From Pseudomonadota bacterium (GTDB lineage Bacteria > Bdellovibrionota > Bdellovibrionia > Bdellovibrionales > Bdellovibrionaceae), in contig JBEGVH010000006.1 of the NCBI GenBank assembly GCA_041178425.1, positions 96,001-160,000 of the forward strand: 64,000 nucleotides of DNA. Direction: 5' to 3'. Shown piece by piece: positions 23,477 through 33,513 of the stretch. Within the stretch, counting starts at the first letter, position 1; each line of letters starts with the position of its first letter. The translations under genes and the position numbers were made by a program. The notes under the pieces were generated by a model that saw only the letters and a list, made by a program, of their open reading frames with translations, was not told the DNA's origin and made no database searches.

Positions 23477-24244
23477 ATGAGAATCAATCGTTCCCAACAG
23501 CTCTATCCCCTCAATGGCAAAGTTCATCTCTACTGGCGTTGCCACAATAAAGAGTTTTACCTCCAGGCCAACCATTTCAAACATATGTACTTTGAGTGTC
23601 TCGAACGAGGCCTTGAACACAAACCTTCCATGCATACCTCGAAGCTCAAAGAAAAATGCGTGATTCATGCTTTCTGTGCGATGAGCAACCATTTTCATCA
23701 GGTTGTCGGGTACTCCGATGGCTCCCATCATCTCTCGCTGTTGATGCGGCAGCAGCATGCTTTGTTTGGGATCCGGTACAATCGTTCGAACCGTCGGAGT
23801 GGCAAAGTGGCCGAAGGTCGCCCCAAAACACCACTCATTCAAAATCCTGACCACGAAATGCGTGTTCACTTTTACGTGGAAGCCAACCCAATTCGTGCGG
23901 GCTTCCGGAAGCTCGAGAATCTCAAAGACTACGTTTATTCCAGCTATGGCTTTTACGCCTACGGCAAACGCACGAAGTTCACTCATCTTCTGACGTTTCC
24001 AGAATGGTACCTAAGGCTCGGCAAAACATTCCGAGAGCGCCAAGTTCAGTACCGCAAGCTCTTTCGGGCGTATCTGGGCGAGTATGTTTCAAGTACCTCG
24101 CAAAGATTCAAGAAGGCATTCATTGGCGATGCTCGGTGGATTTTAGAAGTTGTGGCGAGAATCAAAAAGGGAGCCCTTCAATTAGCAGAATCACCATCAG
24201 TGGCTGAGTTTGAAAGTGCGAGTCGCCTCAACGATTCGACGTAG
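23477..24244 (+). mobile_element. REP-associated tyrosine transposase (RAYT; Y1 HUH, IS200/IS605-related)
   Basis: 'HLYWRCHNK', 'HAFCAMSNHFH' (HUH), 'YVEANPIRAG', 'YVYSSY'; no tnpB next to it. Confidence 0.85.
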
Positions 24245-26268: not shown

Positions 26269-27204
26269 GTGGCGATAGGAGTTAAATTTTGCTCGAGGCA
26301 ACACGTGTGGGATTATAGTATTAGAGCTATTTTGTTTATGAGTATTTTGGGAGCATCATTGCTTGGACTGGCTGCTGAAAGCTATCTCACGGGTTTTTCA
26401 TTGCCAGGCAATAGCTCTAAACCGATCTATGAACCGAATGGCACCTGGAAGAAAGTTACCAATTCATCTGCCAACAATTACTTTATCCCTACAAAAACCA
26501 CCACAGAGTGGGATCGATTTAATACCAATAAACCCGCTTCGGTGACAATCGTGGTAGGCTACCCTTATCACTGTTTAGATATCAAAGAGAAAAACCCGAG
26601 TGCGACCAGCGGTACCTACAATATTGATCCTGAACAAGACGGAACCGCCATTACAGTTTTTTGTGATATGGCCACCGATGGTGGAGGCTGGACCCTTATT
26701 GCGAGAACGGCGGTTTATAATGCTTCTATTCACACGACAAGCTACCCCTTCGGATGGAACTCATCCACTGGGACTCTGACCAATTTTAGTTACCCTTACT
26801 CGCTTAATATCGGTGGTAAACCTATCTCATTTACAGAAATGATGATCGGTCAGGTGCAGGCCTCCAGCAATATGCCTGGATATAATATTCTCAAGCGAAG
26901 TTTTACAAAGACGCTTTTAACGAATTACGCGAGCACCTTTGGCTCAGTCAGTGGCTCTTGGATTCAAAGGCCCTCTTGGCCGTACACTTCCGTTCCTGGG
27001 ATGCAGTCAGTGATGGGTTTTACTAACGATACTTCTAAATTTTTTATGCGTGATTGTTGCGGCGATGCCGGTTATGGGGTGTTTTGGTATGGGATGCAAA
27101 CTACCTATTGCGGCTCAGCAGGCAATGAGACCATGCCGGGACCTTACTGCGGTGGAGACACTCTTGGTAATAATTCAAAGCAAGTGATTCTATTTGTACG
27201 TTAA
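26269..27204 (+). CDS. Exported protein with fibrinogen-C-like (FReD) domain
   Basis: 'CLDIK..NPSATSGTYNIDP...VFCDMATDGGGWTLIAR'; N-terminal FIPTKTTTEW module. True start may be further downstream. Confidence 0.75.
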   Translation: MAIGVKFCSRQHVWDYSIRAILFMSILGASLLGLAAESYLTGFSLPGNSSKPIYEPNGTWKKVTNSSANNYFIPTKTTTEWDRFNTNKPASVTIVVGYPYHCLDIKEKNPSATSGTYNIDPEQDGTAITVFCDMATDGGGWTLIARTAVYNASIHTTSYPFGWNSSTGTLTNFSYPYSLNIGGKPISFTEMMIGQVQASSNMPGYNILKRSFTKTLLTNYASTFGSVSGSWIQRPSWPYTSVPGMQSVMGFTNDTSKFFMRDCCGDAGYGVFWYGMQTTYCGSAGNETMPGPYCGGDTLGNNSKQVILFVR

Positions 27205-27416
27205 GGTACCAGGTCCACAAATGTGCCATTCAAAAAAAATGGTGAGCCTGACACAATCAAAAAAATTTGATGGAGCCTGTCCGATCCACCGAGTCTTCCG
27301 GAGGGTGGAGGACTATTTCGGGATAAAAACAAGACCATTGGTGGTTTTGAATTCTATTTTGGTTAAGAAAAAGTTAACCTTAGGAGGTGTGGAAGTTTTT
27401 TTTGAGGGGGGGCGGC

Positions 27417-28580
27417 ATGGGTCATTTAAATCAAAAAGTATCTTTGATTTTTTTAATTTCGCTGTTGCAAATGGCGTTTCCCAATAAAACTTTCGCTTGC
27501 ACTCTAAACTCATACAATTTAGCCAACGGTGCCACCCAAGACATTAATGAGTGCAATATCTGCGCAAGGGTTACAAATAACGTGGGTGCGGCGTTATTCA
27601 TTCCAACAAAAACCACCGCCGAATGGCAGGCTTTTCTAACGAACAAACCCTCGGGGGTCACGCTCGGCTGCTGTTGGAGTTCGATGAGCTTTACTTCGTC
27701 TGGGAATCAAACATTCACTCCACCAGCAAAATATTTTCCTTCGGGCTACAATTACTGCACCCAAGTGCATGTTGTCGTTGTGGGCGGCGGCGGTGCTGGT
27801 AATAATTATTACGGATCAGGCGGCGGCGGTGGTGCTCTTGCTTATAAAAATAATATCACGGTTTCGCCTGGGCAGTCCTACACTGTGACGGTTGGTGCTG
27901 GCGGAACGGGCGGGACCAGTTACACTGTTCAGGCCAATAGTGGCGGTTCCAGTAGCTTTTCTAATGGCTCGATAACTGTTACGGCTGGCGGTGGCTACGG
28001 TGGCCAGCCTTACCCTTATGGTTCAAGACCCTCGCTTGGGGGCACTGTGAGCGGTACCTATGATGGTTCTGGCGCGGGCGGAACGAGTGGCTTGTATAGC
28101 TATTCCTCCCCTTCTTATAAGTCGAGCGGTGGTGGGGGTGCTGGTGGATATGGTGGTAAGGGGGGAGATGGCGCTGGATCTTCAGCCGCTGGAGCAGGAA
28201 CATTTTCATCCGCGACAGCCGGTGTCTCCGGCGGTGGCGGCGGCGGTGGATCCTCCACTGTCGGTTCGTATACTGGGGCCGGCGGCGGCGGAGTTGGGCT
28301 TTTTGGGCTTGGTTCTAATGGCGCGGCCGGGAGTACTGTTGGCGACGTGTCTGCACCCGGAGGAGGAGGAGGCTCGGGCGGATCGGCCGGTAATAGTTCC
28401 GTCACGCATTCTTCCGGGTCACGCCCAAGTGGCGGAGCCTACGGTGGCGGCGGTGGTTCTAATCACAATACAAATTATGCTGGCGGTAATGGAGCTGGTG
28501 GCGCTGTGAGGATCATGTGGGGATCGGGTCGGTCTTTTCCTTCGACGAATGCCTCGTCGACAAATGAATTGGCGCTCTAA
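27417..28580 (+). CDS. Exported glycine-rich protein (phage tail-fibre-like Gly-rich domain)
   Basis: Signal peptide; FIPTKTTAEW module; 'VVVVGGGGAG..GSGGGGGALAYKNNITVSPGQSYTVTVGAGG' and C-terminal 'GAGGAVRIMW'. Confidence 0.75.
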   Translation: MGHLNQKVSLIFLISLLQMAFPNKTFACTLNSYNLANGATQDINECNICARVTNNVGAALFIPTKTTAEWQAFLTNKPSGVTLGCCWSSMSFTSSGNQTFTPPAKYFPSGYNYCTQVHVVVVGGGGAGNNYYGSGGGGGALAYKNNITVSPGQSYTVTVGAGGTGGTSYTVQANSGGSSSFSNGSITVTAGGGYGGQPYPYGSRPSLGGTVSGTYDGSGAGGTSGLYSYSSPSYKSSGGGGAGGYGGKGGDGAGSSAAGAGTFSSATAGVSGGGGGGGSSTVGSYTGAGGGGVGLFGLGSNGAAGSTVGDVSAPGGGGGSGGSAGNSSVTHSSGSRPSGGAYGGGGGSNHNTNYAGGNGAGGAVRIMWGSGRSFPSTNASSTNELAL

Positions 28581-28699: not shown

Positions 28700-29548
28700 C
28701 TATGAGACATTGATTGAGTGTTTGCTATTGAGACCGATATTTTCATTAACCAGCGTCATGGTAATCGATTGAGGTATGTAAAGAAACTCCAGTTGATTAT
28801 TAATCGAATGATAACCGCTGAGATAAATCAGCTGCGATCGATGTTGTGATAAAGCTCGCTTCTTATCATCACCACGAACTCTGAAAGAAATTATGTCAAA
28901 TTTTGGTGATGAAGAAAAAAGAAATAGAACGAGGTTTTTAACATTATAACAAAAATCGCGATATAAATATCTTTGGCTTGAGATGTTTCGAAACATTTTC
29001 CAAAGATATGGAGCCATGCTGTAAAGCCACCATTTCTTTGATAGAACAAAACAACTTTTACTGTCTGTAGTTTTGAGTTCTTGTTCACAGAAAAATCCAA
29101 ACAATAGTCCCCTTTTTAGGCATAAGCCTGCGAGAGTGTAAAAGGCCTGAATATGATGGGGGTGTGGTTTTTCGCCGCCATGGAAAGGGTGGGTTATAGC
29201 CAAGTCAAACTGTTGTCCTTTAGATCCAGAATCAAGAACAGTCTCGAGTTTTCGTGCAAGGTTGGGCAAATAATTTGAGAACCCGGAATCCTCAATCTCT
29301 GCAAAGCTTAATTTAACATTAAGATCTCTTATAGCCATTTGAAGTTCTTGGCCTCGAGGTGAGTCCGCGGAGTAGGTTAGACACAGAATTTCTATTTTAT
29401 GAATCTTCGATAAAAATTTTAACCCTTCGTAAAACCAAAGAGACTCGTCGTCGGGGTGTGCAACCACCAAAAGAATGCTAAAGGAACGGTGCTTTTCTTT
29501 TGTCATTAATTGGAATGCTAAAATAGGCTCGATAAAATACCAATTCAA
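28700..29548 (-). CDS. PIG-L / LmbE-family deacetylase
   Basis: 'VVAHPDDES', 'RGQEL', 'HPHH', 'KKRALSQHRSQ'. Confidence 0.8.
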   Translation of the reverse strand: MNWYFIEPILAFQLMTKEKHRSFSILLVVAHPDDESLWFYEGLKFLSKIHKIEILCLTYSADSPRGQELQMAIRDLNVKLSFAEIEDSGFSNYLPNLARKLETVLDSGSKGQQFDLAITHPFHGGEKPHPHHIQAFYTLAGLCLKRGLLFGFFCEQELKTTDSKSCFVLSKKWWLYSMAPYLWKMFRNISSQRYLYRDFCYNVKNLVLFLFSSSPKFDIISFRVRGDDKKRALSQHRSQLIYLSGYHSINNQLEFLYIPQSITMTLVNENIGLNSKHSINVS

Positions 29549-29662
29549 TTAATGTGTTGGGAATTAAATTGTGGCTGAGGTCTAGCAGAATTGCAGTATG
29601 GTAGACAGATAAAGCCATGACTGCCATGGAAGATAAACAATCAGCAAACAGAAAAAATAAAG

Positions 29663-30934
29663 TTAGAGTAACCAAAAGCAAATAGCAGCAATCAAAGTGG
29701 GAAGCAAAGAGCTGTAAAATAGCTGCCAGGAGCTGATTCCCTCTTTGCCAAAGGCACCATTAAGAATACTGTATCCGGCAGGATTAGGGGCGTTGGCAAT
29801 TATAGTAAGGCCACCACCCACTATGCTTCCTGCAACCAATGCATATCGAGAGGAGTGGGATAGGTCGGGAACTTGGGAGCCTAAATAGGTGAGAGCGGCA
29901 TTGTCCGTGATTGCAGTGAGTGAGAGACTACCAAGATACAGAGGCAGAGAATCTAAAGAGCTCAGGACGGGCTCAAGCCACCATCTTTGGGGCGCACCAA
30001 GAATGATCAATCCGCCAAGGAAGAACCCTACAAGTAAGCCCTCCTTTAGATTTAACCTTTCTTGGTACTCTTTGGTCACGGTGACAAGGCCAAGGAAGAA
30101 AAGAAAGAGTCCTAAGAATAAAATGGGGCGATGAGCAGCAGCGACTATTAAAATCAAGAAGAGTAGATGGATGATAGGAACCCAAAGGGGCATCTTCATT
30201 TGCATTTTAATTTGTGATTTAGAAAGACTCAAGAGCTCTCTTCTGTTGATCCAGGTCACAAGACTTGTTGAAATGCAAACTGCTATAATTGCTTTCCAGC
30301 CAAAATTCGAAAACATAAATGCAAGGTCCCAGCTCCAATTGGATGCTACCATGAGTACAGGGGCTGCAGCGTAGGGGGTAAGAGTTCCCCCAATCGAAAT
30401 ATTAACAAAAAGTAAACCGAGGGTAGCGTATTTGAGTTTCATGGAAATTTGTCTTTTATATAATCGATTAAGAAGAGTGAGTGCAGTGACTGTCATCGCG
30501 GCGGGCTCAGTGATGAAGCTTCCAAGGATTGGTCCAACAATGAGTATGATTAGATAAAAAGATAATTCGCCGCTAAAGGGCAATAAGCGACTCAAGCTAT
30601 CGATTATGATTTTTGTTAATTCTAGAATTGGTTCAGTTGAGCATACGGTCATAATTACAAAAATGAGTGCGGGTTCAGTAAAACTTCTCGTTTCGAGATA
30701 GAAAATGGATGTACTGAAGTCTTCAATGATTCCAAAACAAATAAGAAAAATCAGTGCCCAAACTCCAAAAACTACTTCAACTTCTCCAAGAAGGTGGAAA
30801 AAATTTTCCTTTATTGAGCCCGCGGGATATTGGAGTGCTAGATGTCGAAACCATTTTACCGAAAAAGTATGTAAAAGAGCCATGAAAAAACAAATTGTGG
30901 CTGCCAGGGGTACCGGGGTGATCGTTTCAAGCAT
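29663..30934 (-). CDS. Putative Na+/H+ antiporter (DUF1504-like, ion-transporter superfamily)
   Basis: 'FHLLGEVEVVFG', 'GSFITEPAAMT', 'NISIGGTLT', 'TDNAALTYL', 'GGGLTIIANAPNPAG'; about 11-12 TM. Confidence 0.8.
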   Translation of the reverse strand: MLETITPVPLAATICFFMALLHTFSVKWFRHLALQYPAGSIKENFFHLLGEVEVVFGVWALIFLICFGIIEDFSTSIFYLETRSFTEPALIFVIMTVCSTEPILELTKIIIDSLSRLLPFSGELSFYLIILIVGPILGSFITEPAAMTVTALTLLNRLYKRQISMKLKYATLGLLFVNISIGGTLTPYAAAPVLMVASNWSWDLAFMFSNFGWKAIIAVCISTSLVTWINRRELLSLSKSQIKMQMKMPLWVPIIHLLFLILIVAAAHRPILFLGLFLFFLGLVTVTKEYQERLNLKEGLLVGFFLGGLIILGAPQRWWLEPVLSSLDSLPLYLGSLSLTAITDNAALTYLGSQVPDLSHSSRYALVAGSIVGGGLTIIANAPNPAGYSILNGAFGKEGISSWQLFYSSLLPTLIAAICFWLL

Positions 30935-30971
30935 CTTGCTGGCCCTCCTCTAAGAGTGGATCAAAAAAGTT

Positions 30972-32348
30972 TTAAACGTATTTTAGGAGTTCTTTTAAGT
31001 TAGCGATCTTCGTTTTAGCATTTGCTGTAACATCAGGGCTCTGAGGGTAGATGGCAAAGGATTGTTCGGAGTGCTTGAAGAGACAAATGTCATTTTCTCC
31101 GTTGCCAACAGAAAGAACTTGGTGATCGTTAGGGGACGTGTTAGCCGCCCTCAAATGGTGAATAAAATTGGCCTTGCAGATTTGATGTTCTTTGCATCCG
31201 TTTTCGAACTGCATAAAGGGTGAGAGCGTAATTTCGCCTGTGGCTTTACCTTTATTAAAATCTAGTAAATGAGCAATAGAAAAATCGGCAAATATTCTAC
31301 GGCGAATGATCTCGGATGCTATAAAGTAAGAGTCGGTGATGATTCCTACTCGATAGCCGCTCTTTCTGAGTTCAATGATTGTCTCCTGAGCATGAGGTTT
31401 GAGCGGAATAGTGCGAGCAATTTTTTCAAAGGTCTGTTTAGGGATTCCTCTCAGTACTTGCGCGATCATTTTGGTTCTATATCGAGAGTCAAGTTGGTGA
31501 TTACCTAGTAGTCCGTTGAGTTCGTGTCGTAAGCCGGTATAATGGGTGATGGCCTCAATAAAACTACCTTCAATGAGTGTGCCATCCATATCGAACAAAA
31601 CAACCGGCTGATTCTCTTCTAGTTCCTGAAGGATAGATCCATATTGAAACTTCTCGAACCGCTCTCGTTCTGAAGAATCTCCAATTGAAAAAGGGTGGAG
31701 TCGACGATATTTTGAGGCCTTTGTAAGAATTGTTCTAACAACTTGGAGAGACATTTTTGAGAGGGCTTCGAGGGGTTGATGATCGTGATCAAGGTAGCCT
31801 ACTTCAATCTCTGTAATGCGAGCGCCCAATTGAGAAACATCAATGAGTAGGCCGATATCGACACCATAATCATTTTCAAATTTTATATTATTTAGAAAAT
31901 CGCGATTGGCCGCAATGATTCCGCCGAGGGGTTGTTCAAAAGCGAGGAGTTCTGGAAAAAAAATCTTTAAAAGTGGCTTTGCTGTAAGTTCGGTAACTCG
32001 GCCCGAGGCACGATGGAATTTTCCTTTTACAAAGTCGGCCTCTTCAGAAAGAAGTGGTTGGATCATACTATCAATTAGTTCGTTTGAAAAGTTAAAGATG
32101 TCGCCGTCGAGAAAGAGCACTTTTTCATTTTTGGAGCGCACCAAGCCGTCGTGCATCGAGGCACCTTTGCCTAAAAGTGAGCTTAAATAAACTTTGGCGC
32201 CTTCCTTTTTGGCAATATTAAATGTGTTGTCTGTTGACCCGTCATCTATAACGATAATTTCCGTTACGATGGGCTTTGTTTTTACGTATCGAATGATTTC
32301 GCCGATGCGTTTTTCCTCATTCAGTGTTGGAATAATGACGGTGATCAT
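30972..32348 (-). CDS. Fused glucosyl-3-phosphoglycerate synthase (GpgS/MpgS-type GT-A) + HAD-IB phosphatase
   Basis: GpgS motifs 'IPTLNEE', 'GKG', 'FLDGD', 'GRVTELTAKPLL', 'QPLGG', 'YGVDIGLLID'. HAD motifs 'FDMDGTL', 'ITDS', 'CK', 'GNGEND'. Confidence 0.85.
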   Translation of the reverse strand: MITVIIPTLNEEKRIGEIIRYVKTKPIVTEIIVIDDGSTDNTFNIAKKEGAKVYLSSLLGKGASMHDGLVRSKNEKVLFLDGDIFNFSNELIDSMIQPLLSEEADFVKGKFHRASGRVTELTAKPLLKIFFPELLAFEQPLGGIIAANRDFLNNIKFENDYGVDIGLLIDVSQLGARITEIEVGYLDHDHQPLEALSKMSLQVVRTILTKASKYRRLHPFSIGDSSERERFEKFQYGSILQELEENQPVVLFDMDGTLIEGSFIEAITHYTGLRHELNGLLGNHQLDSRYRTKMIAQVLRGIPKQTFEKIARTIPLKPHAQETIIELRKSGYRVGIITDSYFIASEIIRRRIFADFSIAHLLDFNKGKATGEITLSPFMQFENGCKEHQICKANFIHHLRAANTSPNDHQVLSVGNGENDICLFKHSEQSFAIYPQSPDVTANAKTKIANLKELLKYV

Positions 32349-32420
32349 AAGACTCCATTTTTTTCATAAGTGAGTGTTGGAATGAGTAGCGTATTAAAGT
32401 CTAGTTGGTTGGTGTCACTT

Positions 32421-32525
32421 CTACGTTAAGTAGAAGAGCGGTCCGAAAAAGAATAGGCGTTTTTTTATTAATAGAGTAATCGATTGGCGATGGTCGACAG
32501 ATCTCCACTCAAGAACCAATATCAT
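32421..32525 (-). CDS. Candidate 34-aa leader ORF (MILVLEWRSVDHRQSITLLIKKRLFFFGPLFYLT)
   Basis: Strong RBS GGAGG 4 nt before the ATG, directly 3' of the riboswitch candidate; below the ORF-track length cutoff. Confidence 0.35.
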   Translation of the reverse strand: MILVLEWRSVDHRQSITLLIKKRLFFFGPLFYLT

Positions 32526-32541
32526 AGTTCCTCCAAGCGAA

Positions 32542-32586
32542 AGCGACCCTACTTTCAGTTAACTACAAGCTTAAGCTTGCACCCGC
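32542..32586 (-). ncRNA. Candidate nhaA-I-like (monovalent cation, Li+/Na+) riboswitch
   Basis: Minus strand GCGGGTG-CAAGC-TTAA-GCTTG-TAGTTAACTGAAAGTAGGGTCGCT resembles the nhaA-I layout as recalled (GGGUG-hairpin-UGGUU...GGUCGGGCCGCC). It sits at the 5' end of a transcript containing an antiporter. No covariance model was run. Confidence 0.45.
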
Positions 32587-32598
32587 AAATTACTCTCT

Positions 32599-32627
32599 AT
32601 TTTCTATAGATTGCGAAGAGGAGTCAA
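32599..32627 (-). promoter_or_regulatory. sigma70-type promoter for the GpgS-HAD operon
   Basis: TTGACT-N17-GAAAAT on the minus strand; predicted start about 32592, just before the riboswitch candidate. Confidence 0.5.
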
Positions 32628-32644
32628 GATGTATAAATTAAAAA

Positions 32645-32685
32645 AACACCAAACAAAAGACTAAAAATAGAAGTTGTTTGGTGTT
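32645..32685. repeat. 12-bp perfect inverted repeat AACACCAAACAA-N17-TTGTTTGGTGTT
   Basis: Read directly; lies just upstream of the operon's -35. Confidence 0.6.
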
Positions 32686-33008
32686 GAGGCTTAGTCGCCA
32701 AATTGTCGTCGTGATTACTTTTCATTTACAGGGTGCCTCATTAAAATTAGGATTTCAGAAACAGGAGGTATCAACAATTAGATACCAGTTTCTCTAAATT
32801 TCAATTTAAATAGTTTTTGTTTACAGAGTCACTTGGCCCTTCGGAAGTATTGCGATCTTTAATGATACTAGCTGTTTTTATGGTGCCATTAAATAGTAAT
32901 TTGCGGTCGATATTAGGGCAATGATAGGTCTTAATAGATCACCTCTTGACAATCATAGGTAAATCCCTACACTGCGCGACTTAATTGTGATTGGTAGGGA
33001 GAAAATAG

Positions 33009-33439: not shown

Positions 33440-33513
33440 TGGAGGTGGTAAACGGATTTGAACCGCTGTACGCGCTTTTGCAGAGCGCTGCCTAGCCCCT
33501 CGGCCATACCACC
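33440..33513 (-). tRNA. tRNA-Cys (GCA)
   Basis: GGTGGTA acceptor stem, anticodon loop CT-GCA-AA, TTCAAATC T-loop, encoded CCA; 74 nt. Confidence 0.95.

Follow-up and report, generated by a model that had tools for sequence, protein, structure and literature searches.

The locus

A 64,000-nt stretch of a Bdellovibrionaceae genome (assembly GCA_041178425.1, contig JBEGVH010000006.1, positions 96,001 to 160,000; hereafter, the window) carries on its minus strand a leader RNA with three genes behind it. The order is: a promoter-like site; the leader; an open reading frame (ORF) for a GT2-type glycosyltransferase (GT) fused to a HAD phosphatase; an ORF for a PF07399 antiporter, whose start lies 37 bp past the fusion stop codon; and an ORF for a PIG-L deacetylase. 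An earlier note on this DNA had named the three genes, their order, the 37-bp gap, and a TTGACT-17-GAAAAT site, and all are present as described. It had also put forward a candidate cation riboswitch in the leader, with nhaA-I RNAs as the precedent. That proposal survives in modified form: the RNA has an nhaA-I-like fold tied to antiporter genes, but it falls outside Rfam membership. The main finding is this RNA variant, not the three-gene module.

Below, G000 denotes the genome analyzed here, and C9 and C28 are other contigs of it. Other G numbers denote genomes of relatives, and L numbers denote loci.

The aptamer variant

The nhaA-I-like aptamer spans 47 nt (32538..32584, minus strand). A 5' GGGU element (32584-32581) is followed by the first stem, P1 (32580-32565); the junction J1/2, AGUU (32564-32561); and the second stem, P2 (32557-32552 with 32543-32538), capped by the 8-nt loop UAGGGUCG (32551-32544). 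The Rfam consensus and the validated constructs of Li+-I switches have the same frame, but with an AGG junction and the loop UCGGGCCG. The variant departs from them at three core bases: G to U in J1/2, C to A at loop position 2, and C to U at loop position 6.

Rfam does not see this RNA. At gathering score, a scan of the window against all 4227 families gave no nhaA-I, nhaA-II, or Na+-I match, and neither did a scan of 32300-33000 at E 10; the leader and seven variant loci likewise matched no relevant family. Whole-genome searches of 10 genomes with RF03057 (membership cut-off, 37 bits) gave no score to any variant site, even at E 10, although the same model recovers canonical nhaA-I RNAs at 52 bits in L022 and L115. 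The whole-genome search with RF03071 (cut-off, 40.5 bits) also scored no variant site. The comparison of the leader with the Rfam nhaA-I, nhaA-II, and DUF1646 models, which the earlier note had proposed, thus ended without a match. As judged from its sequence, the leader RNA is a divergent variant of the nhaA-I/Li+-I fold and not an Rfam member of nhaA-I, nhaA-II, or Na+-I.

Three specific assignments were considered and rejected. Membership in RF03057 as Rfam defines it is ruled out by the absent score, at gathering or at E 10, and by the core of AGU plus UAGGGUCG; a Na+-I (RF03071) member, by the absent score and the missing GGUUG and CAAGA signature; and Na+-II, by U at loop position 1 in every copy (54/54) and by the lack of any terminator-like site between aptamer and first gene.

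The genome holds a second copy. BLAST found one significant further match, C9:4267-4340 (87% identity over 75 nt), which precedes a paralogue of the first gene and has a compensatory change in P1. A pattern search with a stem filter yielded 27 seeds, from which a covariance model, R1, was built. (A loose pattern run over 401 genomes of the phylum gave many chance matches by a reversed-pattern control, and only matches with both stems were used.) The window copy, itself a seed, scores 49.8 bits with R1. Exactly two R1 matches occur in G000, the window copy and the C9 copy, and R1 sites occur in at least 39 of 151 genomes of the family, a lower bound at 36 candidates scored per genome.

The stems covary. 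In the alignment of the 27 seeds, 85% of cells are paired and double changes number 104. An alignment of 31 R1 hits, two of them seed loci, has 91% of cells paired and 111 changed on both sides; sliding it by one column drops pairing to about 49%, with 25-30 double changes. In a set of 54 copies from 42 genomes (R1 score at least 30 bits; duplicates and three weak matches dropped), GGGU and AGU are invariant (54/54 each) and the loop is UAGGGUCG in 52/54, a constancy that is partly circular since the seed pattern fixed the loop, and that comes from related genomes that are not independent. As a negative control, R1 scored none of 85 outside loci (four pattern loci from one other phylum, one weak locus, and 80 viral pattern matches). 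A tight pattern had matches in 4 of 121 genomes of that phylum, against 5 control matches, and in 0 of 181 genomes of a phylum of very small genomes; sampling outside Bdellovibrionota was sparse.

The leader holds a real, conserved two-hairpin RNA with covarying stems. Very probably, it is a functional cis-regulatory switch.

Genes behind the variant

The first gene behind the 54 copies encodes a small membrane peptide in 23 cases (2 weak), DapB in 10, a PF07399 protein in 6, a GCS2-type ligase in 4, NhaA in 3, and the GT-HAD fusion in 2; the other 6 have some other gene or none. An antiporter gene is therefore first in 9/54. In 6 more it follows a short peptide gene within 600 nt, and at the window locus the PF07399 gene is second. 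The peptides have 29-51 residues, a single helix, an invariant Lys and Pro, and a basic tail (examples are L097:1562-1705 and L092:1560-1709, with about 20 further loci). They often stand ahead of NhaA or PF07399 genes, and match no Pfam family and no Atlas family (best 0.84).

The YbdK/GCS2-type ligases behind the variant (L226:1954-3156, L229:3930-5132, L230:4027-6025, and L234:4408-5613), one of them fused to a C26 peptidase, may mark a further solute pathway. Copies can also cluster: G274 has six R1 hits, one of them weak, with several copies per locus at L225 and L226. In G206 (L239), a multi-copy cluster faces a trehalose synthase/phosphatase pair.

The fusion, too, recurs with cation control. 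In L022, outside the phylum, a canonical nhaA-I RNA, a PF07399 gene, and the fusion stand in a row; in L115, also outside, canonical nhaA-I lies directly before the fusion; and in L111, a divergent Na+/H+ exchanger fragment is nearby. By eye, L110 and L244 have no switch or antiporter linkage. (These five loci make up the survey of neighborhoods outside the phylum; a metagenome scan with another alignment, A1, returned mostly unrelated GT2 proteins, with 3/80 full fusions.) Linkage of the fusion to cation control, as the earlier note would require, thus recurs in some loci, whereas the exact three-gene order was seen only in G000.

Promoter-like site and proposed expression platform

A putative sigma-70-like promoter, the TTGACT-17-GAAAAT site (32599..32627, minus strand), ends 14 nt before the aptamer. 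In the C9 copy, TTGACA-18-AATGAT sits 13 nt ahead. Of the 54 copies, 17 have a promoter-like site at a distance of 6-25 nt, versus 1/216 control windows taken from further upstream and often coding.

For most copies, the mode of control is suggested by what precedes the start codon. CCU or CCC, the complement of loop AGG/GGG, stands immediately 5' of 33/47 called starts, versus 47/1108 long ORFs of G000. This enrichment suggests that pairing between loop and start region is the off state in most copies.

The window leader is built otherwise. A third hairpin, P3 (8 bp; 32511..32533, minus strand), overlaps a GGAGG ribosome site, and the C9 copy has the identical stem with a different loop. A predicted upstream ORF of 34 codons (32421..32525, minus strand) begins at the spacing of the regulated start in other copies; its C9 counterpart has 24 codons and an unlike sequence. 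The upstream ORF stop codon lies in the 3' arm of a hairpin lacking a U-tail (32418..32436, minus strand), and a similar stop-covering hairpin occurs in C9. The fusion start is 195 nt past the loop, versus about 15-35 nt in most copies. The lowest-energy fold of the window leader breaks P2 (-55.8 kcal/mol, versus -50.0 with the aptamer forced). On our reading of these two sequences and their modeled folds, a leader-peptide relay may operate in the window and C9 copies.

The three proteins

The first gene (30972..32348, minus strand) encodes a 458-residue protein that, by profile and fold, joins a GpgS-like GT domain (residues 1-215, approximately) to a SerB-like HAD-IB phosphatase domain (about 245-458). 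The nearest solved structures for the GT domain are of mycobacterial GpgS (rmsd about 1.8 Å; 36-37% identity). Residues kept include D81 and D83 (DxD), K61, D164, the metal-site H188, Y161, and the acceptor-site V118-T119; roles of such residues in metal, donor, and glycerate binding come from work on GpgS (PMC2581804), and their mapping onto M. tuberculosis GpgS numbering is our own. Mycobacterial GpgS (PDB 4Y6N, 7PDO, and 3CKJ) and R. xylanophilus MpgS (3F1Y) have the same fold and agree with it at most of the residues for donor, metal, and acceptor. Unlike those enzymes, the protein has a fused SerB-like phosphatase, scores below the GpgS equivalog cut-off, and lacks the equivalents of Arg261 and the PLxGE-loop Glu. 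A glycerate acceptor is probable.

The HAD domain scores above the TIGR01488 (HAD-IB) threshold (55.8 bits versus 45), with DxDGT, motif II, Lys, and motif IV in place, and below that of the SerB equivalog (65 versus 144). A glycosyl-phosphoglycerate is a plausible substrate, by our own reasoning, because phosphoserine and phosphoglycerate are chemically alike. Chloroflexota possess a bifunctional mannosyl-3-phosphoglycerate synthase/phosphatase. That enzyme (Atlas cluster PF09488 plus PF08282) likewise makes a glycerate solute with both activities on a single polypeptide, but its GT belongs to another family and its phosphatase is HAD-IIB-type rather than SerB-type.

No report of the fusion enzyme was found in literature listings. 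Its homologues number 3251 proteins at E 1e-30 and are common in metagenomes; plasmid records gave no match at E 1e-40. Within the phylum it is rare, with 4/60 relatives carrying it (one lacking its start) and full-length copies in 2/301 genomes sampled. That scarcity lends no support to the earlier note's rationale of osmotic shifts on entry into prey.

Incomplete or degenerate copies were also seen. The C9 paralogue (L046:4267-5879; 476 residues, full length, 31-33% identical to the window fusion) no longer has DxD, GKG, or HAD motifs II-IV, although its switch is retained, and so is likely, from its sequence, a pseudo-enzyme under the same control. G001 (L045:7819-9748) has a fusion lacking its first 87 residues beside a PIG-L remnant, and in G309 (L246:3468-4049) a copy is cut near the contig end.

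The second gene (29663..30934, minus strand; GAGGAGG ribosome site) encodes a putative Na+/H+ antiporter of 423 residues (PF07399, Na_H_antiport_3; 553 bits versus a cut-off of 25). A second PF07399 gene in the genome (G000:C28:29855-31114; 55% identity) has no switch. The genes downstream of it presumably encode a NAD-linked NiFe hydrogenase.

The third gene (28700..29506, minus strand) encodes a predicted PIG-L/LmbE-family deacetylase (PF02585; 34.5 bits versus 28.2). It probably starts at ATG 29506, giving 268 residues as in database record P0121, rather than at TTG 29548. This start is 156 nt past the antiporter stop; a single weak stem of 6 bp lies in the gap, where the minus strand has no promoter-like site. 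The subfamily is small, with 59 proteins at E 1e-15. Its AHPDDE and HPHH motifs (His-Asp-His zinc ligands) are invariant in 55/55, and its fold matches are GlcNAc de-N-acetylases. With MshB, BshB, and teicoplanin Orf2 it shares the PIG-L fold and the zinc-ligand motifs, at only 10-19% identity; the window protein has no PDB sequence match.

The deacetylase travels with the fusion. In all four relatives with a fusion, PIG-L, whole or remnant, adjoins it, and in G021 it overlaps the fusion start. Among clade-1 fusions on contigs of at least 4 kb, 19/48 lie on a contig of exactly the length of one with a PIG-L homologue, versus 0/60 distant fusions (identical contig size being a proxy rather than read synteny). 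Because PIG-L travels with this clade, an amino-sugar product is a serious rival to glucosylglycerate. The glucosylglycerate of the earlier note consequently becomes one candidate only, given also the sub-threshold GpgS score and the SerB-like phosphatase.

In three relatives, G022, G026, and G001, the fusion has a LysR gene ahead of it and a ClC-type gene behind (the ClC family was checked in G022); G022 continues with DUF389, a switch copy, dapB, and NhaA. By NCBIfam, the LysR neighbor of the fusion does not qualify as NhaR in either G022 or G026 (45-48 bits, versus 219).

In the window, a single transcript very likely spans fusion and antiporter; inclusion of the deacetylase is only somewhat favored.

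Surroundings

The module has a GC fraction of 0.38-0.43, compared with 0.48-0.50 in the genes beyond and 0.44 genome-wide, and a tRNA-Cys gene (GCA anticodon; 33443-33513) lies about 0.8 kb away. Low GC and nearby tRNA hint at an island. Two plus-strand genes (26269-28580) converge on the module, encoding a fibrinogen-like YCDxxxxGGGW protein and a glycine-rich protein with a common N-terminal motif. Further on, a 255-residue ORF (23477-24244) has no Pfam match; we take it to resemble a REP-associated tyrosine transposase.

Metagenomes with matching DNA are from freshwater and lagoon, and this DNA may have come from two of them. Among the matches listed, contigs differ by strain in the genes and not in the aptamer, and none is an RNA dataset.

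Which ion?

Published accounts of three alkali-ion riboswitch classes bear on the ligand. Li+-I switches (RF03057; PMC5737381, PMC9646797) share with the variant the 5' GGGU, P1, a short A-G junction, P2, and an 8-nt loop of the form U-x-GGG-x-CG; they too lie upstream of NhaA/PF07399 genes and, like the variant, probably act on translation. Unlike them, the variant has AGU for AGG and UAGGGUCG for UCGGGCCG, gets no Rfam score, and mostly precedes small-peptide and dapB genes. Na+-II, the D. propionicus nhaA-I variant (PMC9646797), provides a precedent for specificity changed by loop substitution within the same fold. It has the loop CCGGGCCG, AGG, and an intrinsic terminator, whereas the variant has U at loop position 1 and no terminator. 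Na+-I (DUF1646, RF03071; PMC9337991) shares the two-stem fold, a loop 2 purine, loop 6 U, dapB and antiporter targets, and the osmolyte link; in contrast, the variant has neither GGUUG nor CAAGA, ends its loop in CG rather than two purines, and gets no Rfam score.

The J1/2 and loop 2 changes occur together, as would be the case if a G-C tertiary pair had become U-A. They suggest a contact between J1/2 and loop, though as one evolutionary event they are weak evidence for it.

Na+ is favored over Li+ on three counts: the loop 2 purine and loop 6 U match all four Na+-I constructs (PMC9337991 supplement); Na+-I riboswitches are tied to dapB and osmolyte genes (PMC9337991); and in the D. propionicus switch, one loop base shifts selectivity between Na+ and a broader range (PMC9646797). 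Sequence comparison thereby gives Na+ roughly an even chance of being the ligand. Li+ is a good deal less likely, and a mixed or other specificity stands level with Li+.

That a cation switch can control osmolyte and antiporter genes is already known (PMC9646797, PMC9337991), so the general coupling, which the earlier note did not know as a described system, is not new. Annotated nhaA-I targets are dominated by antiporters, with pfam07399 counted as NhaA, and include otsA (16) and glycosyl transferases (5) (PMC9646797). The variant core is the new part: no report of it was found in literature listings, although the published alignments of PMC5737381 and PMC9646797 (944 sequences), which lay outside the comparison, may contain it.

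A proposed mechanism and its rivals

The reading favored here, held with middling confidence, is that a re-tuned relative of the Li+/Na+ riboswitches, predicted to sense Na+, turns on one mRNA that encodes a likely glycosyl-glycerate synthase-phosphatase together with a putative cation/H+ antiporter, the deacetylase probably belonging to the same pathway. The fold, its conservation, the gene associations, and the domain make-up are the observed part. The rest may run as follows. Transcription would start about 8 nt before the aptamer. Without ligand, the mRNA fold would block the start region: in most copies through pairing of loop AGGG with CCU/CCC before the start codon, and in the window and C9 copies through P3 over the ribosome site, joined in the window by a long alternative helix that breaks P2. 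Ion binding would dock the 5' GGGU and J1/2 onto the P2 loop, freeing the start. In the window copy, the start so freed would be that of the upstream ORF, and translation of this short frame would open the way to the long genes that follow. The fusion would glycosylate 3-phosphoglycerate (GT domain) and strip off the phosphate (HAD domain), and the antiporter would export the cation.

Several observations weigh against this reading or qualify it. On the RNA side, D. propionicus switches mutated in J1/2 or the loop no longer respond, and the variant's changed bases fall where the multi-base mutations M2 and M3 abolished it (PMC9646797); its binding could therefore be altered or lost. Loop position 1 and the 5' end are Li+-I-like. 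The 252-nt leader as a whole is about as stable as its shuffles (z -0.45), so that the "structured leader" of the earlier note applies to the sub-region 32470-32597 (z -2.3). On its own, the promoter match is at chance level (12 found versus 10.0 ± 3.5 expected); it gains weight because the position ahead of the aptamer recurs, in C9 and in the 17 copies. Neither the window nor the C9 copy has the CCU anti-loop, both having P3 over GGAGG, the short ORF, and the stop hairpin in its place, and in C9 the minimum-energy fold leaves the two aptamer stems intact. The partial circularity of the loop count belongs here as well.

On the protein side, the GpgS equivalog NF010496 gives 189 bits over residues 2-221, short of its cut-off of 262; the Arg261 equivalent is Gln; HAD motif IV reads GNGEND, with Asn where most homologues have Asp; and no paper on PF07399 activity was found in literature listings. 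Linkage is also incomplete. In four relatives (G021, G022, G026, and G001), what precedes the fusion is PIG-L or LysR rather than a switch. Among 30 antiporter loci of the order (L050-L079, with 1.5-kb flanks), 23 lack either an R1 hit above 30 bits or an upstream pattern match; R1 hits occur in L053, L056, L058, L060, L061, and, weakly, L063, and L050 is the window locus.

The strongest competitor is about the product and does not conflict with the switch. A three-step route resembling those for bacillithiol and mycothiol would attach GlcNAc to phosphoglycerate, dephosphorylate it, and deacetylate it, giving a zwitterionic, glucosaminyl-glycerate-like solute. The contig-size proxy, the gene overlap in G021, and the zinc motifs and fold matches of the deacetylase all suit this route, which is a real though minority possibility. 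However, the loci of distant fusions that share these GT motifs (L022, L110, L111, L115, and L244) include no such PIG-L; G274 has PIG-L and LysR with no fusion match in L225 or L245; and PIG-L is divergently transcribed in G022 and G026. To our knowledge, no GpgS-type enzyme uses UDP-GlcNAc, which also counts against it.

Somewhat less likely is an ordinary Li+-I switch with neutral, compensating drift, in a Li+-detoxification unit where the fusion is a passenger or a secondary osmotic helper. GGGU, the two stems, a first loop U, and a final CG are indeed as in validated Li+-I constructs, J1/2 and loop 2 change jointly as a G-C pair becoming U-A would, and glycosyl transferases and pfam07399 already figure among nhaA-I targets. 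Yet RF03057 scores no variant site, the antiporter is first gene in 9/54 copies rather than dominant, and one loop base sufficed to switch Li+ to Na+ in D. propionicus (PMC9646797).

Improbable is a chance assembly on a mobile island, in which the switch is a relic of a dapB-type gene, serves only a dead short ORF, and controls nothing downstream. The window copy is most like dapB-type copies (L109, L205), the fusion start is distant, the gene order was seen in one genome, the module has lower GC and a tRNA nearby, and the C9 paralogue lacks catalytic motifs. Against this, copies before paralogues only 31-33% identical keep the aptamer, promoter position, P3, and stop hairpin, and canonical switches stand ahead of the fusion in other lineages.

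Least probable is that the RNA now reads a non-alkali signal suited to the phylum (pH, NH4+, K+, or a protein): three core bases are off Li+-I, the commonest target is an unnamed peptide, and one substitution was enough to let the D. propionicus switch respond to NH4+ as well (PMC9646797), but targets and neighbors are still NhaA, PF07399, and dapB, as for Na+ and Li+ switches.

Significance

The alkali-ion aptamer fold is still without a solved structure. How so small an RNA distinguishes Li+ from Na+ is an open question raised by White et al. (PMC9646797), and the variant bears on it as a natural, conserved triple change in a core where one loop base flips ion choice.

At its most ambitious, and with only an outside chance of being right, the predicted Na+ sensor favored here would represent a third class of Na+-sensing riboswitches, confined to Bdellovibrionota, invisible to Rfam, and with paired changes that reveal a tertiary contact. 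At this locus it would gate, through a leader peptide, a single-chain synthase-phosphatase and a deacetylase that together make a glycerate osmolyte with an amino sugar, so far undescribed; at other loci its target would be the unnamed membrane peptide, acting in the salt response.

More broadly, the variant gives this phylum, where Rfam finds none of these sites, a likely cation regulon. It also points to uncharacterized salt-response genes: the family of 29-51-residue membrane peptides; the GCS2-type ligases; and the GpgS-like/SerB-like fusion with its clade-specific deacetylase.

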